Assembly: GCA_965248445.1 (NCBI GenBank)
Contig: CBDFJG010000001.1
Span: 576,001 to 640,000, forward strand
Direction: 5' to 3'
Origin: Planctomycetota bacterium
GTDB taxonomy: Bacteria; Planctomycetota; JAJSAM01; JAJVHW01
DNA: 64,000 nucleotides
Position 1 is the stretch's first letter. Each line of letters starts with the position of its first letter. Both the position numbers and the translations under genes were made by a program. Below the pieces are notes generated by a model. That model had not been told where the DNA came from. It did no database searches and worked only from the letters and a program-made list of their open reading frames with translations. Positions 2,396-12,061 of the stretch are shown here, piece by piece.

Positions 2396-3090
2396 CATGC
2401 ATATCCGGTTAATGACCGCGCCCACTACATCTTGTGCTAGAAGGGCAGCGGGCTTGCAGGCTCGTCGGCGTAGACCTGTTCGTACGTGCGCGGCGGCGTC
2501 TTCGCCGCGATGCCGAGGACCGTCTGGAACGCTGCCTGCGGCGTGCGTCTCCTGTTGAACCGGAACGTGAACTCGTCGAGATACCGCTGCAGGTGCTTCT
2601 CCGAGACCCGGCCGTGGTGCGTGCCTACGAGCCAGGTCTTGAGGTTGGAGAAGACCAGGTGGTGCAGGTGCCTCAGGACGTCCGCCTGCGCCGCGCCCAT
2701 CATCGTGGACTCGATCCCGTGCTCGTAGCCGAGTTTCTCGACTGCGTCGTAGGTCTCGTGGCCGTCGGTCACGACGAGCGCCCCACGCTCGATGCTGTCC
2801 TTGACGAACGCCAGCAGGTGCGGCTTCGATGAGGCCGGCACGTGGCGCAGCCGGATGCGTCCGGGCTGTGTGCCTCTCTTCGTCGGACGCACCTCGACCG
2901 CGCCGACCACGACGGCCTTGTCTGCCGCGGTGCGCTCCTCTCGGCCTCGAAACGGCGCTCCGATCAGCGCCTCGTCGACCTCGACGACGCCGAACAACTG
3001 CGCGCGCTCCGGCGCGACCATCGCAGATCGCAGTTTCTGGAGCATCTGGTACGCGGTCTCGTAGCGGGTCAGACCGAGCTGTCGCTGGAG
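2396..3090 (-). mobile_element. Truncated IS1595-family element (3' part and right TIR only)
   Basis: Near-identical reverse complement of ~7319-8008. TIR CATGCATATCCGGTTAATGACCG at 2396. Transposase C-terminus ends at 2437. Homology stops abruptly at 3090. Confidence 0.9.
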
Positions 3091-4400
3091 CCAGGGTCGA
3101 GCGGAACCTGTTCAGCGGCCAGCGGTCCGACGACCCCGGCGTCGACATCGACGGGCCGAACGCCGTGGTGCAAAAGAACCGGTTCGTCTACGGCCTCGGC
3201 GTCGGCATCCAGGTCGATGCCGAGAACGGTGGAACGGCCACGGTCTGCAAGAATACGGTCGATTCGATGGCGGGCGACTCCTACATCCTGGTGGAGAACG
3301 CGGCGGGCCCCAGGGTCCTGAAGAACGTCTTCAAGAACGCTTACATTGGCGATAGCTACGACCACGTCATCGACCTCCAGTCCTGTGACGACGCCCTAGT
3401 CTCCGGCAACAAGATACTGACGATGAACTACTCCATCGAGAGGGGGATCAACGTCGCGGGCGAACGGGCGACGGTAACGAAGAACTGCATCGAGAACGTG
3501 AATGGCTACTACTACGACCTGTATTGCATCTACGTGCAGGGGAACGACGCCGCGATCAGCCGCAACAAGATCCGGATCTGCGGCGCCGGGGAGGAATCCG
3601 ACACGTATGCGATCTACGTTTCCGGGAACACAGCGAGCGTCACGCGAAACGCGATCAACGACATAGCTGGTGGCGGCGACGAGATCTTCGGGGTCTATAT
3701 CGACGGCGACGACGGCTCCATCGACGGCAACCGGATCAGCCACCTGAACGAAGAGTACACGTACGCCATCTACTACACCGGCCACAGGGCCCGGATCGTC
3801 AAGAACAGGATCGCGCACGTGATGGCTGACGGGGACATCTACGTCCGCGGCGATGACTTCCTGATCGAGAACAACACCGTCAGGGACGGAGCGTACTACT
3901 GCACCGGTATCTACACGCGCGGATCCGCCACGATGCTCGGGGCGGCGGTGATCCAGCGGAACTCACTGAGCTTTCTCGGGTCGGACGGCATCGACCACGG
4001 AGGCAACGGGGTGGTCATCCGCGACAACAAGCTGAACCACCTGGCGGGGTTCGGGGTGATTGCGGACGGAAACGACAACGTGCTGATCGGTAACAGTGTG
4101 TCGGGCACGTACACGGCCGCTTTCCACATCGATGGCAACGACAACAGCGTGACGGGTTGTGCCGCCAGGGACAGCGACGGAGACGGGTTCAGGATCCAGG
4201 GCAACAACAACACGCTGGAGAACTGCACGGCGTCCAACTGCGCCGCCGAGGGCCTCGACAACAGCGGCACCGACACCAGCGCGATGAACTGCCGGTTCAC
4301 CGGCTCCCGAATCGACTACGCCGGCAACAACAACATGATCGACGACACCGGAACGACGTTCGGGACCGGAAGTGCCGCGACCGCGCCCGAGATCAACTGA
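3091..4400 (+). pseudogene. 5'-truncated right-handed parallel beta-helix repeat protein
   Basis: Repeated IxxNxI / GIYVxG units. The frame starts at the IS1595 breakpoint with no start codon or signal peptide of its own. Confidence 0.75.
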
Positions 4401-4524
4401 CCTCGGGACCATCGAGATCGGGACACCCGCGCGGACGGGTCCTGCGGATACCGAGATGGGATGAGATCCCGTCTTCTCGACCAAGGTTCTTAGAGCGTTG
4501 TTGGCGCTGCCCGCCTCGCCTGCG

Positions 4525-6056
4525 GTACCCGTTCAGGGTATGACGATCCGCGGCCTCAGCGCGTGATCGGGAGCGCGACGAGAGCCGGCGGCGAGCGGTT
4601 GTGCGCGAGTGCCGCGCTGACGTCTGCGAGGTAATCGAAGACGCTCTCGCCACGCTGGCGGAGCGTGGCGGTGACGGTCAGGATGCGCTCGACGAAGCGG
4701 AGTCCGCGCTCGCTCTGACTTCCGTGCGTTGCGCGTCTCCACAGGACCGGCTTGCGCACCGCGCGCTCAGCGGCGTTGTTCGTCGGGGAGACGCCAGGGA
4801 CGTCGGCGAAGGTCCACAGAGCCTCCGCTCGGTCGAGCAGATGCCGAGTCGTTCCGCGTACTCGGCGGTGCTTGCTGTCTGCGCCGCGCACGAGCAGCGT
4901 CAGGAGTCGGTCCCATGTGAGACGCAGCTCACGCCGCATGCGGTCGCGGTCCCCGTGCTCGCCGAAGTGACGCTGAGCTCGCATGACAGCCTGGGCGAGA
5001 CGCACGGCCTGCTTGCCGAAGCGCCGGCCGCCGCGCGAGCCCTCGGCCAGCGCTCGAAAGTCCCTCTCGAGATGCGCCCAGCAGATCTGGCGGCGCTCGG
5101 TGGGATGCTGGTCGTAAGCGCCCATACGGTCGGTCACGAGGACGCCCCTGAAGCGCTTGCCCACGAGTCGCCGCATGGCCTTGGCGCTCCTGCGCCGATC
5201 GATACGATGGACCGTGGCGTGCTCACAGACCGCGCTCCACAGCCAATGCAGCGTGCCACGACGCGACCACGGTGTCTCGTCTACATAGGCGACGCTGCTC
5301 GTGCGTACGGCCCCGAGGGCCTCGATGTGCGCTGAGGAGATGGCTCCCGACACCCGCTCCTCGATCGCACTGACCGTGCCCGGTGACATCGAGACGCCGA
5401 TGACGTCACGCAACAGACGACTGGTCTCGCGCCGCGACAGGCGGAAGACGCCGACCAGAGCCGCGGTGAGCGCACAGAGTCGCGGGCCGAAGGGACTCGC
5501 CGTCACACCGCTTGGCAGCGAGGCAGTGGACGTGGCGCCACAGTCCGTGCACCGTGCCCGGTGCAACCGGTGCTCGGTCACCTGGATCAGCCGTGGCGGG
5601 ACCTCGAAGACCTGCTGGCGTGTCGGGGCGCGATCGATCGGGACGAGCACGTCGCTCCCACACGCGCTGCACTCGCGCGGGCGGTGGTCCTCTACGCCAT
5701 CGACCTCGGACTCGTCCACGAGCTTGCGCGTCGCCCCTTTGTGGCCGGGCTGCGCACCCTGGCGCTTGTCCGACGGCGGCTTGCGCCGCCGCCGCTTCTT
5801 GGACCACGACGGATCCGAGGACGGTGGGCGCGAGGAGGTGCGGGAGTCCCGGCGAAGACGGCTCTCGAGATCGTCGATCCGTGCCGCCTGCCGCTCGATC
5901 ACCTCCGCCTGCTCGGCAATCGTCTCGTCCCGAGCGTCCAGACGACGGGTCAGGCGCTCGACCAGATCACGCAGCTCATCGGTGCCCACATCCGATTCAT
6001 CGACCGAACGGAAAGCGATCTGGATCCGAGCTCAGAACCAAGGGCTGAACGGGTAC
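4525..6056 (-). mobile_element. IS66-family single-ORF (ISBst12-like) element, copy 1
   Basis: TIRs GTACCCGTTCAG / CTGAACGGGTAC. 8-bp target duplication CGCCTGCG at 4517-4524 and 6057-6064. Length 1532 bp. Confidence 0.95.
4556..5989 (-). CDS. IS66-family transposase
   Basis: N-terminal coiled coil, SSRPPSSD, GAQPGH, two CxxC pairs, DET, LVTD, QICWAHLER and TNNAAER motifs. Confidence 0.93.
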   Translation of the reverse strand: MGTDELRDLVERLTRRLDARDETIAEQAEVIERQAARIDDLESRLRRDSRTSSRPPSSDPSWSKKRRRRKPPSDKRQGAQPGHKGATRKLVDESEVDGVEDHRPRECSACGSDVLVPIDRAPTRQQVFEVPPRLIQVTEHRLHRARCTDCGATSTASLPSGVTASPFGPRLCALTAALVGVFRLSRRETSRLLRDVIGVSMSPGTVSAIEERVSGAISSAHIEALGAVRTSSVAYVDETPWSRRGTLHWLWSAVCEHATVHRIDRRRSAKAMRRLVGKRFRGVLVTDRMGAYDQHPTERRQICWAHLERDFRALAEGSRGGRRFGKQAVRLAQAVMRAQRHFGEHGDRDRMRRELRLTWDRLLTLLVRGADSKHRRVRGTTRHLLDRAEALWTFADVPGVSPTNNAAERAVRKPVLWRRATHGSQSERGLRFVERILTVTATLRQRGESVFDYLADVSAALAHNRSPPALVALPITR

Positions 6057-6967
6057 CGCCTGCGCGCGGGGACCGCGCTCGGCGGGCCGCGAGGACAGGT
6101 TGGGTGGTGCGACGCCTTCGCCTGTCGGCTCGGGCATGAATCCGGGGCGGCGGAGCGCGCGCGAGTTCGCTCGGAAGACTCGTGGCTCATGCGGGCACCT
6201 GCGTGGCCGACGTGGCCACGGGTGTGGGCCGGGGGACGAAGGGCTGTTTGTTTCGAGCCACCCAGTGGACGGCGACCAGGAGCTTTCGCATGGACGCGAC
6301 GAGGGCGACCTTCGGGAGCTTGCCCTGGGACCGAAGCCGTTCGTAGAAGGCGCGCAGCCAGGGGTTCCTGCGCACCGCGGTCAGGACGGGCATCCACAGG
6401 GCCCTGCGCAGCCGGGCGTGCCCGATGCGGGTGATGGCGGCGCGTTGGCCCTGGTTGCGTCCGGACTGCTTGAGTGCCGGGACGACCCCGATGTATGACG
6501 CCAGCGCCTTGGCGTCGCGGAAACGAGTGATGTCGCCCAGCTCCGCGACGAGCCGCGCGGCGGTCTGTGGCCCGATGCCGTCGATGGTCGTGAGGAGCTT
6601 GCCGACCTCGTGGTGCTCCAGGGTTCCCCCGATCAGCTTCTCCAAGTCGCGAAGGCGCCGGCGCAGCAAGTCCAGATCCTCGCAGGCGTACCGGACCTGA
6701 GTGCGATAGGCCTCGGCGTGGTGGCGGCCCACGGACGACTTGGCTGCACGGACCAGGTCTTGGGCAAGCTGCCGCCCGACTCGGTGACGTCCGTCGTAAC
6801 GGAGCGCGGCGAGTCGCTTGACCGAGACACCCACAAAGGCCTGCGCGGTGGGATGGCGGTTGAGCAGCGCCGTGGCGAGTTCGCTGTCGAGGGTGCGGAC
6901 GTGGCGTGTGAACTCCGGGAAACCCAGGTCCACCAAGCGGTGAAGCCGGCGGACCCGGTCTCCAAAG

Positions 6968-8008
6968 CATGCATATCCGGTTGACGACCGTGACCCCAAG
7001 GGGTAGTGTCTCGGACGCATGCCGAAGCCGGGCTACCCTCGCAACATCGTGGAGTTCACGGAGCAGTTCGCGACGGAAGAGCAGTGCCTCGAGTACCTCG
7101 TGCAGTGTCGTTGGCCCGACGGGTTCCGCTGCCGCCGGTGCGGCGGCAAGAAGTACTGGCCCCGTCCAGATCGAAGAGCGATGCGGTGCGTGGGCTGCGA
7201 CCTGATCACGTCGGTCACCGCGGGCACAGTGCTGCATCGCAGCCGGCTGCCGCTGAAGTCCTGGATGTGGGCCGCGTACTTGATGACGACGGACAAGCGG
7301 GGCGTCTCTGCGCTCGCACTCCAGCGACAGCTCGGTCTGACCCGCTACGAGACCGCGTACCAGATGCTCCAGAAACTGCGATCTGCGATGGTCGCGCCGG
7401 AGCGCGCGCAGTTGTTCGGCGTCGTCGAGGTCGACGAGGCGCTGATCGGAGCGCCGTTTCGAGGCCGAGAGGAGCGCACCGCGGCAGACAAGGCCGTCGT
7501 GGTCGGCGCGGTCGAGGTGCGTCCGACGAAGAGAGGCACACAGCCCGGACGCATCCGGCTGCGCCACGTGCCGGCCTCATCGAAGCCGCACCTGCTGGCG
7601 TTCGTCAAGGACAGCATCGAGCGTGGGGCGCTCGTCGTGACCGACGGCCACGAGACCTACGACGCAGTCGAGAAACTCGGCTACGAGCACGGGATCGAGT
7701 CCACGATGATGGGCGCGGCGCAGGCGGACGTCCTGAGGCACCTGCACCTGGTCTTCTCCAACCTCAAGACCTGGCTCGTAGGCACGCACCACGGCCGGGT
7801 CTCGAAGAAGCACCTGCAGCGGTATCTCGACGAGTTCACGTTCCGGTTCAACAGGAGACGCACGCCGCAGGCAGCGTTCCAGACGGTCCTCGGCATCGCG
7901 GCGAAGACGCCGCCGCACGTACGAACAGGTCTACGCCGACGAGCCTGCAAGCCCGCTGCCCTTCTAGCACAAGATGTAGTGGGCGCGGTCATTAACCGGA
8001 TATGCATG
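6968..8008 (+). mobile_element. IS1595-family element, full length
   Basis: TIRs CATGCATATCCGGTTGACGACCG / CGGTCATTAACCGGATATGCATG. 8-bp duplication CTCCAAAG at 6960-6967 and 8009-8016 (6 bp if the TIR is drawn 1 bp longer). Confidence 0.93.
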
Positions 8009-8038
8009 CTCCAAAGTCCTGGACCACGCGATCCCTGA
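7019..8038 (+). CDS. IS1595-family transposase with a frameshifted extreme C-terminus
   Basis: Zinc ribbon CRRC...CVGC, VEVDE, VTDG and YLDEFTFRFNRR. A 2-bp deletion near 7915 relative to the partial copy makes the ORF run through the TIR. Confidence 0.9.
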   Translation: MPKPGYPRNIVEFTEQFATEEQCLEYLVQCRWPDGFRCRRCGGKKYWPRPDRRAMRCVGCDLITSVTAGTVLHRSRLPLKSWMWAAYLMTTDKRGVSALALQRQLGLTRYETAYQMLQKLRSAMVAPERAQLFGVVEVDEALIGAPFRGREERTAADKAVVVGAVEVRPTKRGTQPGRIRLRHVPASSKPHLLAFVKDSIERGALVVTDGHETYDAVEKLGYEHGIESTMMGAAQADVLRHLHLVFSNLKTWLVGTHHGRVSKKHLQRYLDEFTFRFNRRRTPQAAFQTVLGIAAKTPPHVRTGLRRRACKPAALLAQDVVGAVINRICMLQSPGPRDP

Positions 8039-8479
8039 GTCTGACGAGCTCGCGCAGTTCCTCGGTGCCGGAGTCGGGCAGCCGCGTGGGCTCCGGGCGT
8101 TTCTGGCGAGCGAACCGGGCGAGCCCGAGGGCGTCGATGGCATCGGTCTTGGTCCGCTGCAGGTCCTCGCCGGCGAAGCGGTGGGTCCGCAGCGGATTGA
8201 TCAGCACCATGGCGAAACCGCGCGAGAGAAGCTCCGCCGCCAAGTTGCGCCAGTAGTGCCCGGTCGCCTCCAAGGCCACGAGCACGTCTCGAGGGACGCC
8301 GAGCAACTCGAAGAGCTCCTCGTAGCCCTGTGCGTCCTCACCGAAGGCGGTGGGCCGCACCAGGATCTCTTCGTCCTCGTCCATCACCGCCACGACGTGC
8401 TTCTTCGAAGCGATGTCTATCCCCGCGTAGCGCATCGTGCACCTCCTGTCATGCGACGAGGAGGACCGGGAGCCTCGGA

Positions 8480-8665
8480 GCCGGCGACCGTACTCATCCT
8501 TGTTCATGCGAGGACGCGCGTCTGCGCGCCTCAGGATCCCGTCCGAGCGTGGGTCGCCGGTCGAGGGCGCCAATCTCATCTCCGAGGACTGCGCCTCGTG
8601 AAGGCCGCGGCGACCCTCTCCCGGCTCTCGTCGATCTCTGTCCACCGTAGGTCGCGGGCATGAGT
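8480..8665 (-). ncRNA. Bridge RNA of the IS621-like element (ends approximate)
   Basis: Two stem / internal loop / stem modules. Target loop carries CGGCCTTC and GATGAG; donor loop carries ACGGGATC and ACAAG. All four match the element's flanks or ends. Confidence 0.85.
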
Positions 8666-8760
8666 GGACGTCATACAAGAAGGCCGGTCCCTGCCTCGGT
8701 GTAACCCGTAGCGGTTTCCAGAGGCGCTGACGGGCTTGCGAGCCCGAGGAGGAACCGGCT

Positions 8761-9804
8761 ATGGCAAAGGCTACACGTTTCGTGATCGGGATGGACCTGG
8801 GCGACCGCGTGGTGCCTGTGTGTGTGCTGGACCGCAAGACGGGCGAGATCGTGGGCGAAGGGCGCGTCGCGACGACGCGTGCTCGCCTGACGGAGTTCCT
8901 CGGCGAGATCGAGCGCTCGAAGGTGGTGATGGAGAGCGGGACGCACTCGCCGTGGATCAGCCGCCTCGCCGAGGGTCTTGGTCACGACGTCATCGTGGCC
9001 GATGCGCGTCGGCTGCGCGCGGTGTGGGACTCGCCCAAGAAGAGTGACCGCCGCGACGCGCTGGTTCTGGCGCAACTGGGGGCCGGGCACCCAGGGCTCC
9101 TTCATCCGGTGTCTCACCGGAGCGAGCGCGCACAGACCCACATGGTCGTGCTCCGAGCGCGCGAGCGTGTGGTCGACGCGCGTACGAAGTTGGTCAATGC
9201 CGCGCGGGGCTCGGTGAAGTCGCTCGGGTACCGATTGCCCGCTTGCTCCGCTCCGAGCTTCCATCGCAAGGCACGCGAGGCGGTGCCGGAAACCCTCGTG
9301 GACGCCCTGGCCCCGTTGTTCGACGCGATCGCAGCGTTGACGGAGAGCATCGCGCGCTACGACCGCGAAGTCGAGCGTCTCGGCCGCGACGCGTATCCGG
9401 TGACACGACGCCTTCGCGAGGTACCCGGCTGCGGTCCCGTCACCGCGCTCGCCTACGTGCTCGTCGTCCACGACCCAGAGCGCTTCTCGCGCAATCGCGA
9501 CGTGGGCGCGTACGTCGGTCTCGTCCCGCGCCAGGACCAGTCGGGCAAGATCGATCGCCAACTCAGGATCACGAAGTGCGGCGACCGGATGCTCCGCCGG
9601 CTGCTCGTGCAGTGCGCGCACTACGTGCTCGGACCACACGGGCCCGACAGCGACCTGAGACGCTGGGGTCTGGAGCTGGCGCAACGGGGCGGGAAGAACG
9701 CGAAGAAACGGGCGACCGTCGCGGTCGCCCGCAAGCTCGCCGTGCTCTTCCACGCTCTGTGGATGAAGGACCGCGCGTACGAGCCGCTCGCTCGAGCGGC
9801 GTGA
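8761..9804 (+). CDS. IS110-family (IS1111 group) recombinase, intact
   Basis: GMDLG, MESG, KSDRRDA (DEDD), VPGCGP, GLVPRQDQSG and AVARKLA. RBS GAGGAGG upstream. Confidence 0.93.
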   Translation: MAKATRFVIGMDLGDRVVPVCVLDRKTGEIVGEGRVATTRARLTEFLGEIERSKVVMESGTHSPWISRLAEGLGHDVIVADARRLRAVWDSPKKSDRRDALVLAQLGAGHPGLLHPVSHRSERAQTHMVVLRARERVVDARTKLVNAARGSVKSLGYRLPACSAPSFHRKAREAVPETLVDALAPLFDAIAALTESIARYDREVERLGRDAYPVTRRLREVPGCGPVTALAYVLVVHDPERFSRNRDVGAYVGLVPRQDQSGKIDRQLRITKCGDRMLRRLLVQCAHYVLGPHGPDSDLRRWGLELAQRGGKNAKKRATVAVARKLAVLFHALWMKDRAYEPLARAA

Positions 9805-9869
9805 TGACCGACTGAACACCACGAACAACACGGGAGTCTGATCGACCGAGCAACGCGCCCACCCGGGCG

Positions 9870-10080
9870 ATGCCCATCTCCCAACTCGAAGGCGCGACGA
9901 CTGCGGTGGCTGAACGGGCCCGGCCCCGGCCGAGGCCGCGTAACTGATGGCAGCGTCGCCCTCGAGCGGATGCCTCAACGTGCACCGGGTCCAAACGACC
10001 CCCTGACGAGTGCGGATGGATGCGTGCAGAGGGAGCCGGCATCGGCTGCGGTGGACGGATCGCCAAGTCGATCCGACGCC
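9870..10080 (+). ncRNA. Candidate bridge/seek RNA in the 3' non-coding end of the IS1111-type element (ends approximate)
   Basis: Outer stem GCGACG-A-CTGC (9894-9904) / GCAGCGTCGC (9950-9959) encloses loop segments TGGCTGAACG and GTAACTG around a GGCC-rich inner hairpin. Confidence 0.7.
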
Positions 10081-10086
10081 TTGACA
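10081..10086 (+). promoter_or_regulatory. Outward-facing -35 box in the IS1111 right end (half of a circle-junction promoter)
   Basis: Perfect TTGACA just inside the right sTIR, as known for IS1111 elements. The matching -10 across the junction is poor. Confidence 0.55.
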
Positions 10087-10105
10087 CAAGAGGCCTTCTC
10101 ATGGA

Positions 10106-11632
10106 CGTTCAGCCATTGTGTCTGAGCCCGTATCCAGATCTCCGAGCGGGTTGACGATGAACACCATGTGGGCAAGGACGACCTCCGCGAGTTGATCGAG
10201 CGGCAGTCGCGGCGTCTCGCTGCCCAGGACGAGAAGATCGCTGAGCAGCAGCGTGTCATCGAGGGGCAGCAGGAGGAGATCGCAGATCTTCGGAACCGCC
10301 TGAAGCGGGATTCGCGCAACTCGTCGCGGCCGCCGTCCTCGGACGCGCCGTGGTCCAAGCGTCGGCGCCGGCGAAAGCCCCCGTCGGACAAGAAGCAGGG
10401 CGGCCAGCTGGGTCACGAGGGCAGGACGCGGCGGCTGGTGGACGAGGACGAGGTCGATGACGTCGAGGACCACCGCCCGAGCGAGTGCTCGAGCTGCGGG
10501 GGCAAGGAGCTCGAGCCGCTGGCGCGTCGTCCGCACCGCCACCAGGTGTGGGAGATCCCGCGGGTGCTGGTCCCGGTGACCGAGCATCGTCTTCACCGTG
10601 CGCGCTGCCGGGAGTGCGGCGAGGTGGTGGCGGCGGCGTTGCCCGAGGGCGTCACCAAGAGCGCCTTGGGCCCGCGGCTGAGCGCGCTTGCGGCATCCTT
10701 GAGCGGCGTCTACCGCGTGAGCCGCCGCGAGGTCTCCCGGCTTCTCTCGGAGGTCTTCGGTGTGACGATGTCGCCCGGCACCGTGAGCGCCATCGAGGGA
10801 CGGCTCGGTGAAGGGCTCTCGCTGCCGCACATCCAGGCGCTTGGCGCGGTGCGCACGAGCTCGGTGGCCAACGTGGACGAGACGCCGTGGAGCGAACGTG
10901 GCGAGCTGCGCTGGCTCTGGACCGCGGTGGCCGAAGGCGTTACCGCGCACCGCATCGACTCCCGCCGCAACGCGGCCGCGATGAAGCGCCTGATCGGCCG
11001 GCGCTATCGCGGGGTGCTGGTGACCGACCGCATGGGCGCCTACGACAAGCACCCGCTCAAGAGGCGCCAGCTCTGCTGGGCCCACTTGGAGCGCGACTTC
11101 CGCGCTCTCGCCGAAGGGCCGCGGGGCGGATGGGTCTTCGGCAAGAAGGGCGTCGAGATCGCGGGGGCCGTGATGCGAGTGCACCGCGGCTTCCGCGGCC
11201 ACGGCGACCGCACCCGGCTCGCGCGCCAGCTCCGCGATCCCAAGCGCCGGCTCCGCCGCCTGCTCGAACGCGGGGCACGCGCCAAGCACTGTCCGGTCAG
11301 GGGCATGTCCAAGCACCTGCTGGCGCGCTTCGATGCGCTCTTCACCTTCGCCGAGGTCCCCGACGTCGACCCTACGAACAACGCCGCCGAACGCGCGGTC
11401 CGCAAGCCGGTGCTCTGGCGCAAGGGCTGCTACGGCAGCCAGTCCGCTCGCGGCGAACGCTTCGTCGAGCGAGTGCTCACGGCCACCGCGACGCTGCGCC
11501 GCCGGGGGGGCAAGTCTTCGACTTCCTCGCCGACTCGCTCGCCGCGCACGTCTCCGGCGCCGACCCACCCGTCCTCGTCAGCCTGCCGATCCCGCGCTGA
11601 GGATCAGGGCCCCCGAAGGGCTGAACGGGTAC
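10106..11632 (+). mobile_element. Second IS66-family (ISBst12-like) element, with its left TIR cut by the IS1111 element
   Basis: Left TIR remnant CGTTCAGCC at 10106. Right TIR GGCTGAACGGGTAC ends at 11632. No target duplication recoverable. Confidence 0.88.
10168..11600 (+). pseudogene. IS66-family transposase with a frameshift in a G7 run
   Basis: Paralog of 4556-5989. One extra G at 11504-11510 restores ...RRRGGQVFDFLADSLAAHVSGADPPVLVSLPIPR*. Confidence 0.85.
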
Positions 11633-11730
11633 GTCGAGGTCGCCCGCAATGCGATCACCGGCACTCCGGCTCCTCGGCTCGTCCCTCAGGCCGCCTCGGC
11701 CTGAGGCTGGATACCCACGTGAACGGGTAC
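11633..11730 (+). mobile_element. 3' remnant of another IS66-family element
   Basis: VEVARNAITGTPAPRLVPQAASA* resembles the IS66 C-termini in this window. It is followed by TIR-like GTGAACGGGTAC ending at 11730. Confidence 0.6.
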
Positions 11731-12061
11731 TCGCGCTCTACCGGAGACTCCAGGTGACTCGCCCGTTCTCTGCCCCCTGTTCCAGTATGACGACCGACAT
11801 CAATGGCGACTTCAGTCGGACGTCTCGACTGTCCACAATCTCACCGCCCGCGATCGTCTGTGACACCGTCTCCTTGTCCAGCGTGTTGAAGTAGACGGTC
11901 AACCGCGAACCAGCCGGTTCGGGAGCGTCATTCCGTACGACGACCGCCCGTCCTCGTCGAGGGAGGTTCGGGGTCGATCTGATCCAGATCCGGAACGTCT
12001 TCGCGCGCGACAGCGCTGAGGTGGTCGTGATGTCGCGGGCGGTGTCGGGCGTTCCATCCAC

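Follow-up and report, generated by a model that had tools for sequence, protein, structure and literature searches.

A predicted IS621-type bridge RNA in a planctomycetal IS110-group element, with guides that match the subterminal inverted repeat of a resident IS1111-type element

The IS110-group element IS621 of E. coli, as described in 2024 by Durrant et al. (PMC11208160) and Hiraizumi et al. (PMC11208158) and represented by PDB 8wt6, encodes a 326-aa recombinase and a 177-nt bridge RNA, and its model has excision rebuild a promoter at the joined ends of the element (PMC11208160, in part). The related IS1111 group is characterized by Siddiquee et al. 2024 (PMC11187229) through inverted repeats of 11-13 bp in a subterminal position, with terminal extensions of 7 bp on the left and 3 bp on the right, and through long non-coding sequence 3′ of the gene.

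The window analysed here, a stretch of 64,000 nucleotides from a Planctomycetota bacterium (contig CBDFJG010000001.1, positions 576,001 to 640,000; genome of 5.4 Mb in 4 contigs), contains two IS110-family genes, and we refer to the elements that carry them as A and B. Element B, which extends on the minus strand from 8679 to 4466, is a copy of an IS110-group insertion sequence, and there is every indication, from the sequence of its left end and those of its relatives, that this end encodes an IS621-type bridge RNA. The positions of the features are collected in Table 1.

Table 1. Features of elements A and B in the window, with the strand on which each is read
Feature	Position	Strand	Basis or remark
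Element B, CT core at the left junction	8678..8679	-	left target half CGGCCTT just outside, 8686-8680
Element B, CT core at the right junction	4464..4465	-	right target half CATCC at 4463-4459
Element B, predicted bridge RNA, structured core (closing helix and two stem-loops)	8468..8622	-	RNAalifold, alignment A1 columns 94-261
Target-binding stem-loop (outer stem, internal loops, inner hairpin)	8563..8618	-	RNAalifold, helices 2 and 3
Left target guide (LTG), CGGCCTTC plus A	8599..8607	-	CGGCCTTC proper is 8607-8600; same letters as left flank 8686-8679; own-flank match 7/7
Right target guide (RTG), GAGATGAG	8575..8582	-	reverse complement of CTCATCTC
Donor-binding stem-loop	8481..8560	-	RNAalifold and pair counts, helices 4-7
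Left donor guide (LDG), ACGGGATC	8535..8542	-	identical to right end of B, 4472-4465
Right donor guide (RDG), ACAAG	8499..8503	-	reverse complement of left end CTTGT, 8679-8675
Recombinase gene part 1, about residues 1-141, DEDD/RuvC-like domain	8013..8435	-	PF01548 (DEDD_Tnp_IS110), E = 4.3e-35
Recombinase gene part 2, coiled-coil, Tnp domain and stop codon	6190..6967	-	PF02371 (Transposase_20), E = 1.5e-29
Nested IS1595-family element, 1041 bp	6968..8008	+	Pfam PF12762, PF12760; terminal inverted repeats
Nested IS66-family element, 1532 bp, in the 3′ non-coding part of B	4525..6056	-	PF03050, PF20042, PF13005
Right end of B, last 59 nt	4466..4524	-	-35-like TTGGTC 15 nt before the end of the CT core
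Element A body, IS1111-type insertion sequence	8680..10105	+	Pfam and NCBIfam; homologue-conserved ends
Element A left terminus, split off by B	4454..4465	+	extension AGATGGG (7 bp) and first 5 bp of the repeat, ATGAG|AAGGCC

The architecture of B is that of IS621, as its mechanism would be, and nothing about the known mechanism is changed. Its recombinase has the DEDD and Tnp domains with the same five catalytic residues; its RNA lies in the left end, with the target-binding loop followed by the donor-binding loop; in each loop the left guide is identical to the top strand and the right guide complementary to it; and the donor guides are conserved and the target guides variable. A -35 in the right end and a -10 in the left end may be shared as well. 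That the layout and the CT core follow IS621 had been proposed when the sequence was first inspected, and we find the same 7+2+5-nt arrangement of target and donor, with CT at both junctions. There are nonetheless several differences. The recombinase of B has 399 aa rather than 326, the surplus lying between the domains and at the C-terminus (query residues 172-255 are unmatched in the phmmer alignment), and the two recombinases are only moderately similar in sequence (E = 4e-37). B also has a long 3′ non-coding end of about 190 nt, and in its subfamily the two bases directly to the right of the core are always CA, which a constant UGAG in the RTG reads. IS621 has a REP element as its natural target and B has the end of a second insertion sequence; B is known from sequence alone. 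Among solved structures the best match to the recombinase is ISCro4 (PDB 9t56, E = 2.9e-40), which has the same domain order in 341 aa as against 399.

On the minus strand the junctions of B read CGGCCTT-CT-TGTAT (8686-8673) and ACGGGAT-CT-CATCC (4472-4459). The ends of the element, CTTGTAT... and ...ACGGGATCT, have no inverted-repeat relation to each other. Between the left core (8679) and the ATG (8435) there are 244 nt of non-coding sequence. Conservation among homologues starts sharply at CTTGTA(T) on the left and stops at ACGG[T/G]ATCT on the right, and because of this the ends of B are fixed independently of the guides. Right ends were found in 17 loci as ACGG[N]AT[C/G]T soon past the stop codon, and not in six others, of which four have early-broken ORFs and two (L021 and L026) have a full-length ORF and lack the pattern.

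The far end of the element had been placed 4.2 kb away, across two insertions, which proved correct, and both insertions could be located with their ends and duplications. Native B is 1.6 kb long and the window copy measures 4.2 kb because it has received an IS1595-family and an IS66-family element, both flanked by target duplications of 8 bp (CTCCAAAG at 6960-6967 and 8009-8016 for the former, CGCCTGCG at 4517-4524 and 6057-6064 for the latter). The IS1595-family element is present in six full-length genomic copies with at least 99% identity, and contigs without this insertion occur in metagenome runs X1, X2 and X5. For the IS66-family element the 5.4-Mb genome has 32 full-length copies at the same level of identity (at least 99%), a copy number that reflects a very recent burst, and contigs without the insertion occur in runs X1, X2 and X6. 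The genome contains four copies of B, 100% identical across the 710 nt tested. Two of them, on contigs 3 and 4, lack both insertions, are 1.6 kb long and contain an open 399-aa gene, and a third copy has an IS1595 element at a different position. Uninterrupted forms of B are also present in independent metagenome runs (X5, without IS1595, and X6, without IS66; other studies).

The nested elements have features of their own. The transposase ORF of the IS1595-family element (7019-8038, plus strand) overruns the right inverted repeat of the element (8008) by 30 nt before it reaches a stop codon, so that the sequence at the insertion site would determine its C-terminus. The IS66-family element consists of a single ORF of 477 aa (DUF6444, zf-IS66, DDE_Tnp_IS66), with no separate accessory genes seen, and a sister family, 79% identical, is present in the genome.

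In the window copy the recombinase ORF starts at 8435, is interrupted after about residue 141 by the IS1595-family insertion and resumes at 6967; in the intact copies of B the two parts are continuous. The sequence-only reading held that this ORF needs repair, which is not the case: as two intact 399-aa copies sit elsewhere in the same genome, repair is unnecessary. The intact recombinase scores 254.9 bits against NF033542, 'IS110 family RNA-guided transposase', for which the cut-off is 140. In the phmmer alignment to 8wt6 its residues D7, E56, D98, D101 and S308 align with D11, E60, D102, D105 and S241 of IS621, where an offset of 2 between chain and native numbering was inferred for the mapping; these are the DEDD and serine catalytic residues of IS621 (PMC11208158, in part).

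A one-genome-per-species scan yielded 25 relative loci (54-73% identity), most of which come from metagenome bins, proteobacterial and myxococcal ones among them. We aligned the 268 nt up to the start codon from 22 of these loci together with the window (alignment A1, 23 rows), omitting L022, whose match begins at residue 76, L024, which nearly duplicates L023 of the same genome, and L027, a contig of 632 nt. RNAalifold, run unguided on A1, predicts two stem-loops, each containing an internal loop, together with a closing helix, at the positions where they had first been read. The structure has 43 pairs in seven helices, and 96.2% of its 983 cells are standard pairs across the 23 sequences, as against only 39-49% when the partners are slid by 1-3 columns. 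Compensatory change on both sides is seen in 16 of the 43 pairs, compared with 4-8 when slid, and none of 500 column shuffles equalled any of the observed structure measures. The compensatory pairs of the donor stem-loop include 163/244 (UA 14, CG 8), 165/242 (CG 9, UA 8) and 177/235 (UA 13, CG 8); three predicted donor-loop pairs are invariant and thus uninformative. Every segment that the sequence-only reading had named in the target loop reads back on the minus strand as given, with an outer stem of GAGGG-T-CGCC (8618-8609) and GGCG-CCCTC (8571-8563) and an inner hairpin of CGAGG (8598-8594) and CCTCG (8587-8583). The two-loop fold is borne out by covariation across 23 left ends, but not by the single-sequence minimum free energy fold of 8680-8436, which is a different, long-range fold with z = -1.89 and is uninformative. 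A search of 4000-10500 against Rfam 15, at E up to 1, gave no match to a bridge-RNA family and two chance-level hits only.

No columns of the RNA vary more than those of the guide loops. Column entropy is 1.28 bits in the LTG and 1.26 bits in the RTG, compared with 0.20 in the LDG and a range of 0.06-0.25 in the stems on either side; variable target loops together with a fixed LDG are the pattern expected for a programmable target and fixed donor guides. The LDG is conserved in homologues as ACGGTATC, and their right ends likewise finish in ACGGTATCT. For the RDG, ACAAG is intact in 22 of the 23 rows of A1, and the left-end CTTGTA is present in 20 of 23, counting L017.

All four guides had been claimed to match target and donor, and their letters and coordinates are confirmed on the minus strand. 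In the window copy the GATGAG of the RTG (8580-8575) is the reverse complement of the flank CTCATC (4465-4460), giving six contiguous pairs with a single mismatch at the fifth base past the core, and the pairing extends to eight positions with the flank CTCATCTC of the other three copies. At fixed registers we estimate the chance of the 7/7 match of the LTG at about 4^-7; the core-equivalent of the LTG is CA, not CT.

We have also examined whether the guides change together with the flanks among the homologues. Every homologue flank past the CT core begins with CA, read by the constant UGAG of the RTG, and the next four positions vary. Sixteen elements had 6 nt of flank or more. In these the RTG, read as its reverse complement, agrees with the right flank of its own element at 44 of the 64 variable positions, compared with 329 of 960 (34%) for non-self combinations, and a score of 44 was reached in none of 20000 permutations. 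The LTG could be compared with the left flank in 19 rows (L015, L016 and L026 have no CTTGTA at the aligned end, and the flank of L017 is too short); it agrees with its own flank at 75 of 133 positions, the non-self mean being 2.68 of 7 (38%), and again this was equalled in none of 20000 permutations. The agreement is uneven: eight loci match at 5-7 of the 7 positions, a ninth matches at 4, and the remaining ten match at 2-3. L014, one of the poor loci, matches at 8/8 once shifted by one base, and chimeric bin contigs, later rearrangements or tolerated mismatches are possible explanations for the poor loci. L031, from the same phylum and with 63% identity, has a different RTG, which matches its own different flank over 7 nt. 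A contig of run X6 is 99.75% identical to the left end of B; the one difference in 404 nt is at 8582, the ninth position of the RTG loop, and is possibly a natural guide variant.

Element A is predicted from its sequence to be a complete IS1111-type element. Its gene (8761-9804, plus strand), the second IS110-family gene of the window, encodes 347 aa and scores 224.8 bits against NF033542. The 11-bp subterminal inverted repeats are ATGAGAAGGCC and GGCCTTCTCAT; on the right, the 3′ non-coding region (9805-10091) is followed by the repeat (10092-10102) and the 3-bp extension GGA, and in all about 300 nt of non-coding sequence lie 3′ of the gene versus about 95 nt upstream. We assign A to the IS1111 type because its repeats, its 7-bp and 3-bp extensions and its long 3′ non-coding region fit the definition in the available part of PMC11187229, and it shares a DEDD transposase with the IS1111/seekRNA elements described there. 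Among 23 homologous loci, 12 have an exact left 11-mer, 16 have it with at most one mismatch, and 12 have an exact right 11-mer; (C/G)AGATGGGATGAGAAGGCC is conserved about 80-135 nt upstream of the start codon, and the 3′ end is conserved as TTGAC-N6-GGCCTTCTCAT-(G/A)GA. Relatives of A are present in 21 of 301 genomes sampled from the phylum of the window.

By analogy with these elements, the 3′ non-coding region of A should encode a seekRNA or bridge RNA of its own. Two copies of A are about 99% identical and differ in compact patches of this region, at about 10040-10058 and 10077-10079 in the window, with the counterpart at about 483003-483042 of contig 3. The patches look like natural re-programming of A's own guide loops. 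We attempted to read A's guides from them and obtained only flank matches of 6 nt and 5 nt, in inconsistent registers and strands, and this assignment was rejected. A second IS66-like element, 79% related, begins exactly at the right terminus of A (10106 onward, plus strand, ORF 10168-11757), and fragments of 114 bp with this same junction between the right end of A and the IS66-like element are found again on contig 2 (855560-855673) and contig 3 (295648-295761).

All four copies of B are head to head with an A gene. The 14-nt target of B is the reverse complement of GGATGAGAAGGCCG, A's left subterminal inverted repeat, and B is inserted inside this repeat, 12 nt from the A terminus (window 4454). 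Of 23 A-family left ends in other genomes, 7 contain the exact 14-mer and 15 contain it with no more than one mismatch. The A terminus at the window copy is canonical, with the flank CATCCCATCT; the other three copies have the variant CATCTCATCA. The sequence-only reading had taken the target with CATCC as its right half; CGGCCTT-CT-CATCTC, found at three of the four copies, is the better-matched natural target. That the target is the end of a second IS110-family element had escaped that reading. The right repeat of A in the window (10092-10102) matches the target of B at 11 of 14 positions and is unoccupied.

The intact 14-mer, comprising both target halves and the core, occurs once in the 5.4-Mb genome, at 1674409-1674422 of contig 4, where it adjoins a 99.6% duplicate of the window's right-flank neighbour gene. 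With this duplicate of the window's right flank beside it, the site serves as an empty site. No A gene was found behind it (tblastn, best E = 1.9), so that it is a solo A-family left end. The duplication itself covers 1.38 kb (window 3090-4466 against contig 4 1674415-1675794, 99.6%), includes most of a NosD-like (PF05048) gene and stops exactly at the insertion point of B.

New here is the identity of the 14-nt target, namely the left subterminal inverted repeat of A, an IS1111-type element conserved within the phylum. Targeting of another mobile element's inverted repeat is reportedly a known habit of the IS110 family, of which IS4321 and IS5075 are the examples. B resembles these elements in belonging to the IS110 family and in having as its fixed target the inverted-repeat end of another mobile element. 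They differ in type and in target, being IS1111-type elements at the ends of Tn3-family transposons, whereas B is an IS110-type element at an IS1111-type subterminal repeat. In those parts of the literature that were available, supplementary tables aside, we found no IS110-type element aimed at an IS1111-type subterminal repeat.

B was not found in seven genomes of the same family, and only one of 60 relatives has it, with 63% identity and guides aimed at a different target; B looks imported, since its best relatives are in other phyla. The copies of A fall into two variants about 11% apart while B is identical in all four, a pattern consistent with homing of B into the ends of A, recently and more than once, or else with homogenisation through recombination among the copies of B. 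One contig of run X5 continues from B into the same A flank.

Several alternative explanations for these observations have to be considered. The left end could be merely a 5′ leader or promoter, with the guide identities being DNA-level repeats left by transposition and no RNA guide involved. The matches are indeed short (5-8 nt) and the single-sequence fold is unremarkable, yet the stems covary, the guide loops vary independently of them, and the guide letters change with the flanks across elements in unrelated targets; moreover, the RTG is complementary to its flank rather than identical, so it is no duplication, and the recombinase family is one with a structurally solved mechanism. We therefore regard an origin of the matches as DNA repeats as very improbable. 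A further thought is that the RNA might be a seekRNA or bridge RNA not of the IS621/IS110 but of the IS1111 type, which lies 3′ of its gene and has its guides in the opposite order, given that the recombinase family is common to both groups and that the neighbour A is itself IS1111 type. This is scarcely credible for an element whose structured RNA lies upstream of the gene and which has no 11-13-bp subterminal inverted repeats; the LTG (bottom-strand match) also precedes the RTG (top-strand complement), which is the IS110-type order in the consulted portions of PMC11187229 and PMC11208160. The interpretation as an IS621-type bridge RNA, which the sequence-only reading had put forward, is in turn supported by the family and residues of the recombinase, the left-end location, the covarying two-loop fold, the four guides, the covariation of guides with flanks and the two nested insertions that account for the 4.2-kb distance to the right end.

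A different question is whether a genuine bridge RNA is still put to use. B might be a fossil, inserted once into A, after which A and B spread or were copied as a unit; the spread would have been driven by A's machinery or by homologous recombination, with the targeting of A used no more than once. In keeping with this, all A copies carry B and there is no B outside A ends; the 70-80 nt of A adjoining B are 100% identical in three copies while the rest of A is only 89% identical, local identity of the kind that gene conversion is expected to produce; and among the contigs of runs X1, X2, X5 and X6, which cannot show absence, we see neither a circle junction between right end and left end nor an excised site with 4465 joined to 8680. 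Weighing against it, B is 100% identical within A variants that are about 11% apart, which argues for recent independent arrival or homogenisation, and its right flanks come in two A-terminus versions, CATCCCATCT and CATCTCATCA. Two copies also have an intact recombinase with all catalytic residues, and the same B-in-A junction is present in other metagenome runs at 95-99% identity. A single insertion followed by spread of the unit is, on this evidence, unlikely, as is the corollary that the spread was due to A or to homologous recombination, though neither is so improbable as to be set aside. As a tentative possibility we propose that B is an RNA-guided hyperparasite of the RNA-guided A, its target loop tuned to the phylum-conserved A repeat, and that by splitting this repeat it disables A or hitch-hikes on it.

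A search for sequencing runs that contain the stretch listed no RNA run. In the integrated state, a scan of 8380-8800 found no sigma-70-like promoter and no terminator. The hexamer TATGAC begins 2 nt past the core in the left end of B, and TTGGTC lies in the right end, so that joining of the ends would place the two hexamers 17 nt apart. Both are weak, matching the consensus at 3/6 and 3/6. A TTG is present at the same right-end register in 16 of 16 loci with enough context, among the 17 with right ends (TTGAC in 10, TTGCT in 6). This arrangement would agree with the promoter model of IS621.

These features suggest the following scheme for the movement of B. The bridge RNA would be transcribed, probably from the promoter assembled at the junction of the right and left ends, and would fold into two stem-loops, each with an internal loop. 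It would presumably bind the recombinase and direct recombination, with the LDG and RDG of the donor loop pairing with the joined ends of the excised circular element, and the 399-aa DEDD/Ser recombinase would exchange strands at the shared CT core to give a precise insertion. The programmed target, CGGCCTT-CT-CATC(T/C), is the left subterminal inverted repeat of the resident A, and B would thus home into the end of A. In the window copy the RNA gene and both ends are intact and the recombinase gene is split by the IS1595-family insertion; without recombinase from the two intact copies this one could not move.

B adds a natural recombinase and bridge-RNA pair with a readable code (donor ACGGGAT-CT-TGTAT, target CGGCCTT-CT-CATCT/C), from a lineage whose recombinase is only moderately similar to the two solved bridge recombinases and whose intact gene, present in the same genome, is clonable as it is. 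Its guide is aimed at a relative that would itself be RNA-guided, and every copy of A in the genome is occupied, an arrangement in which guide programming lets one mobile element live inside another. B within A also provides a natural setting in which to ask if an insertion of this kind silences its host. If the interpretation of B as a hyperparasite is true, the repeat that A keeps for its own recombination would offer a safe landing site wherever A lives, and two bridge or seekRNA elements would be competing through the programming of their guides.
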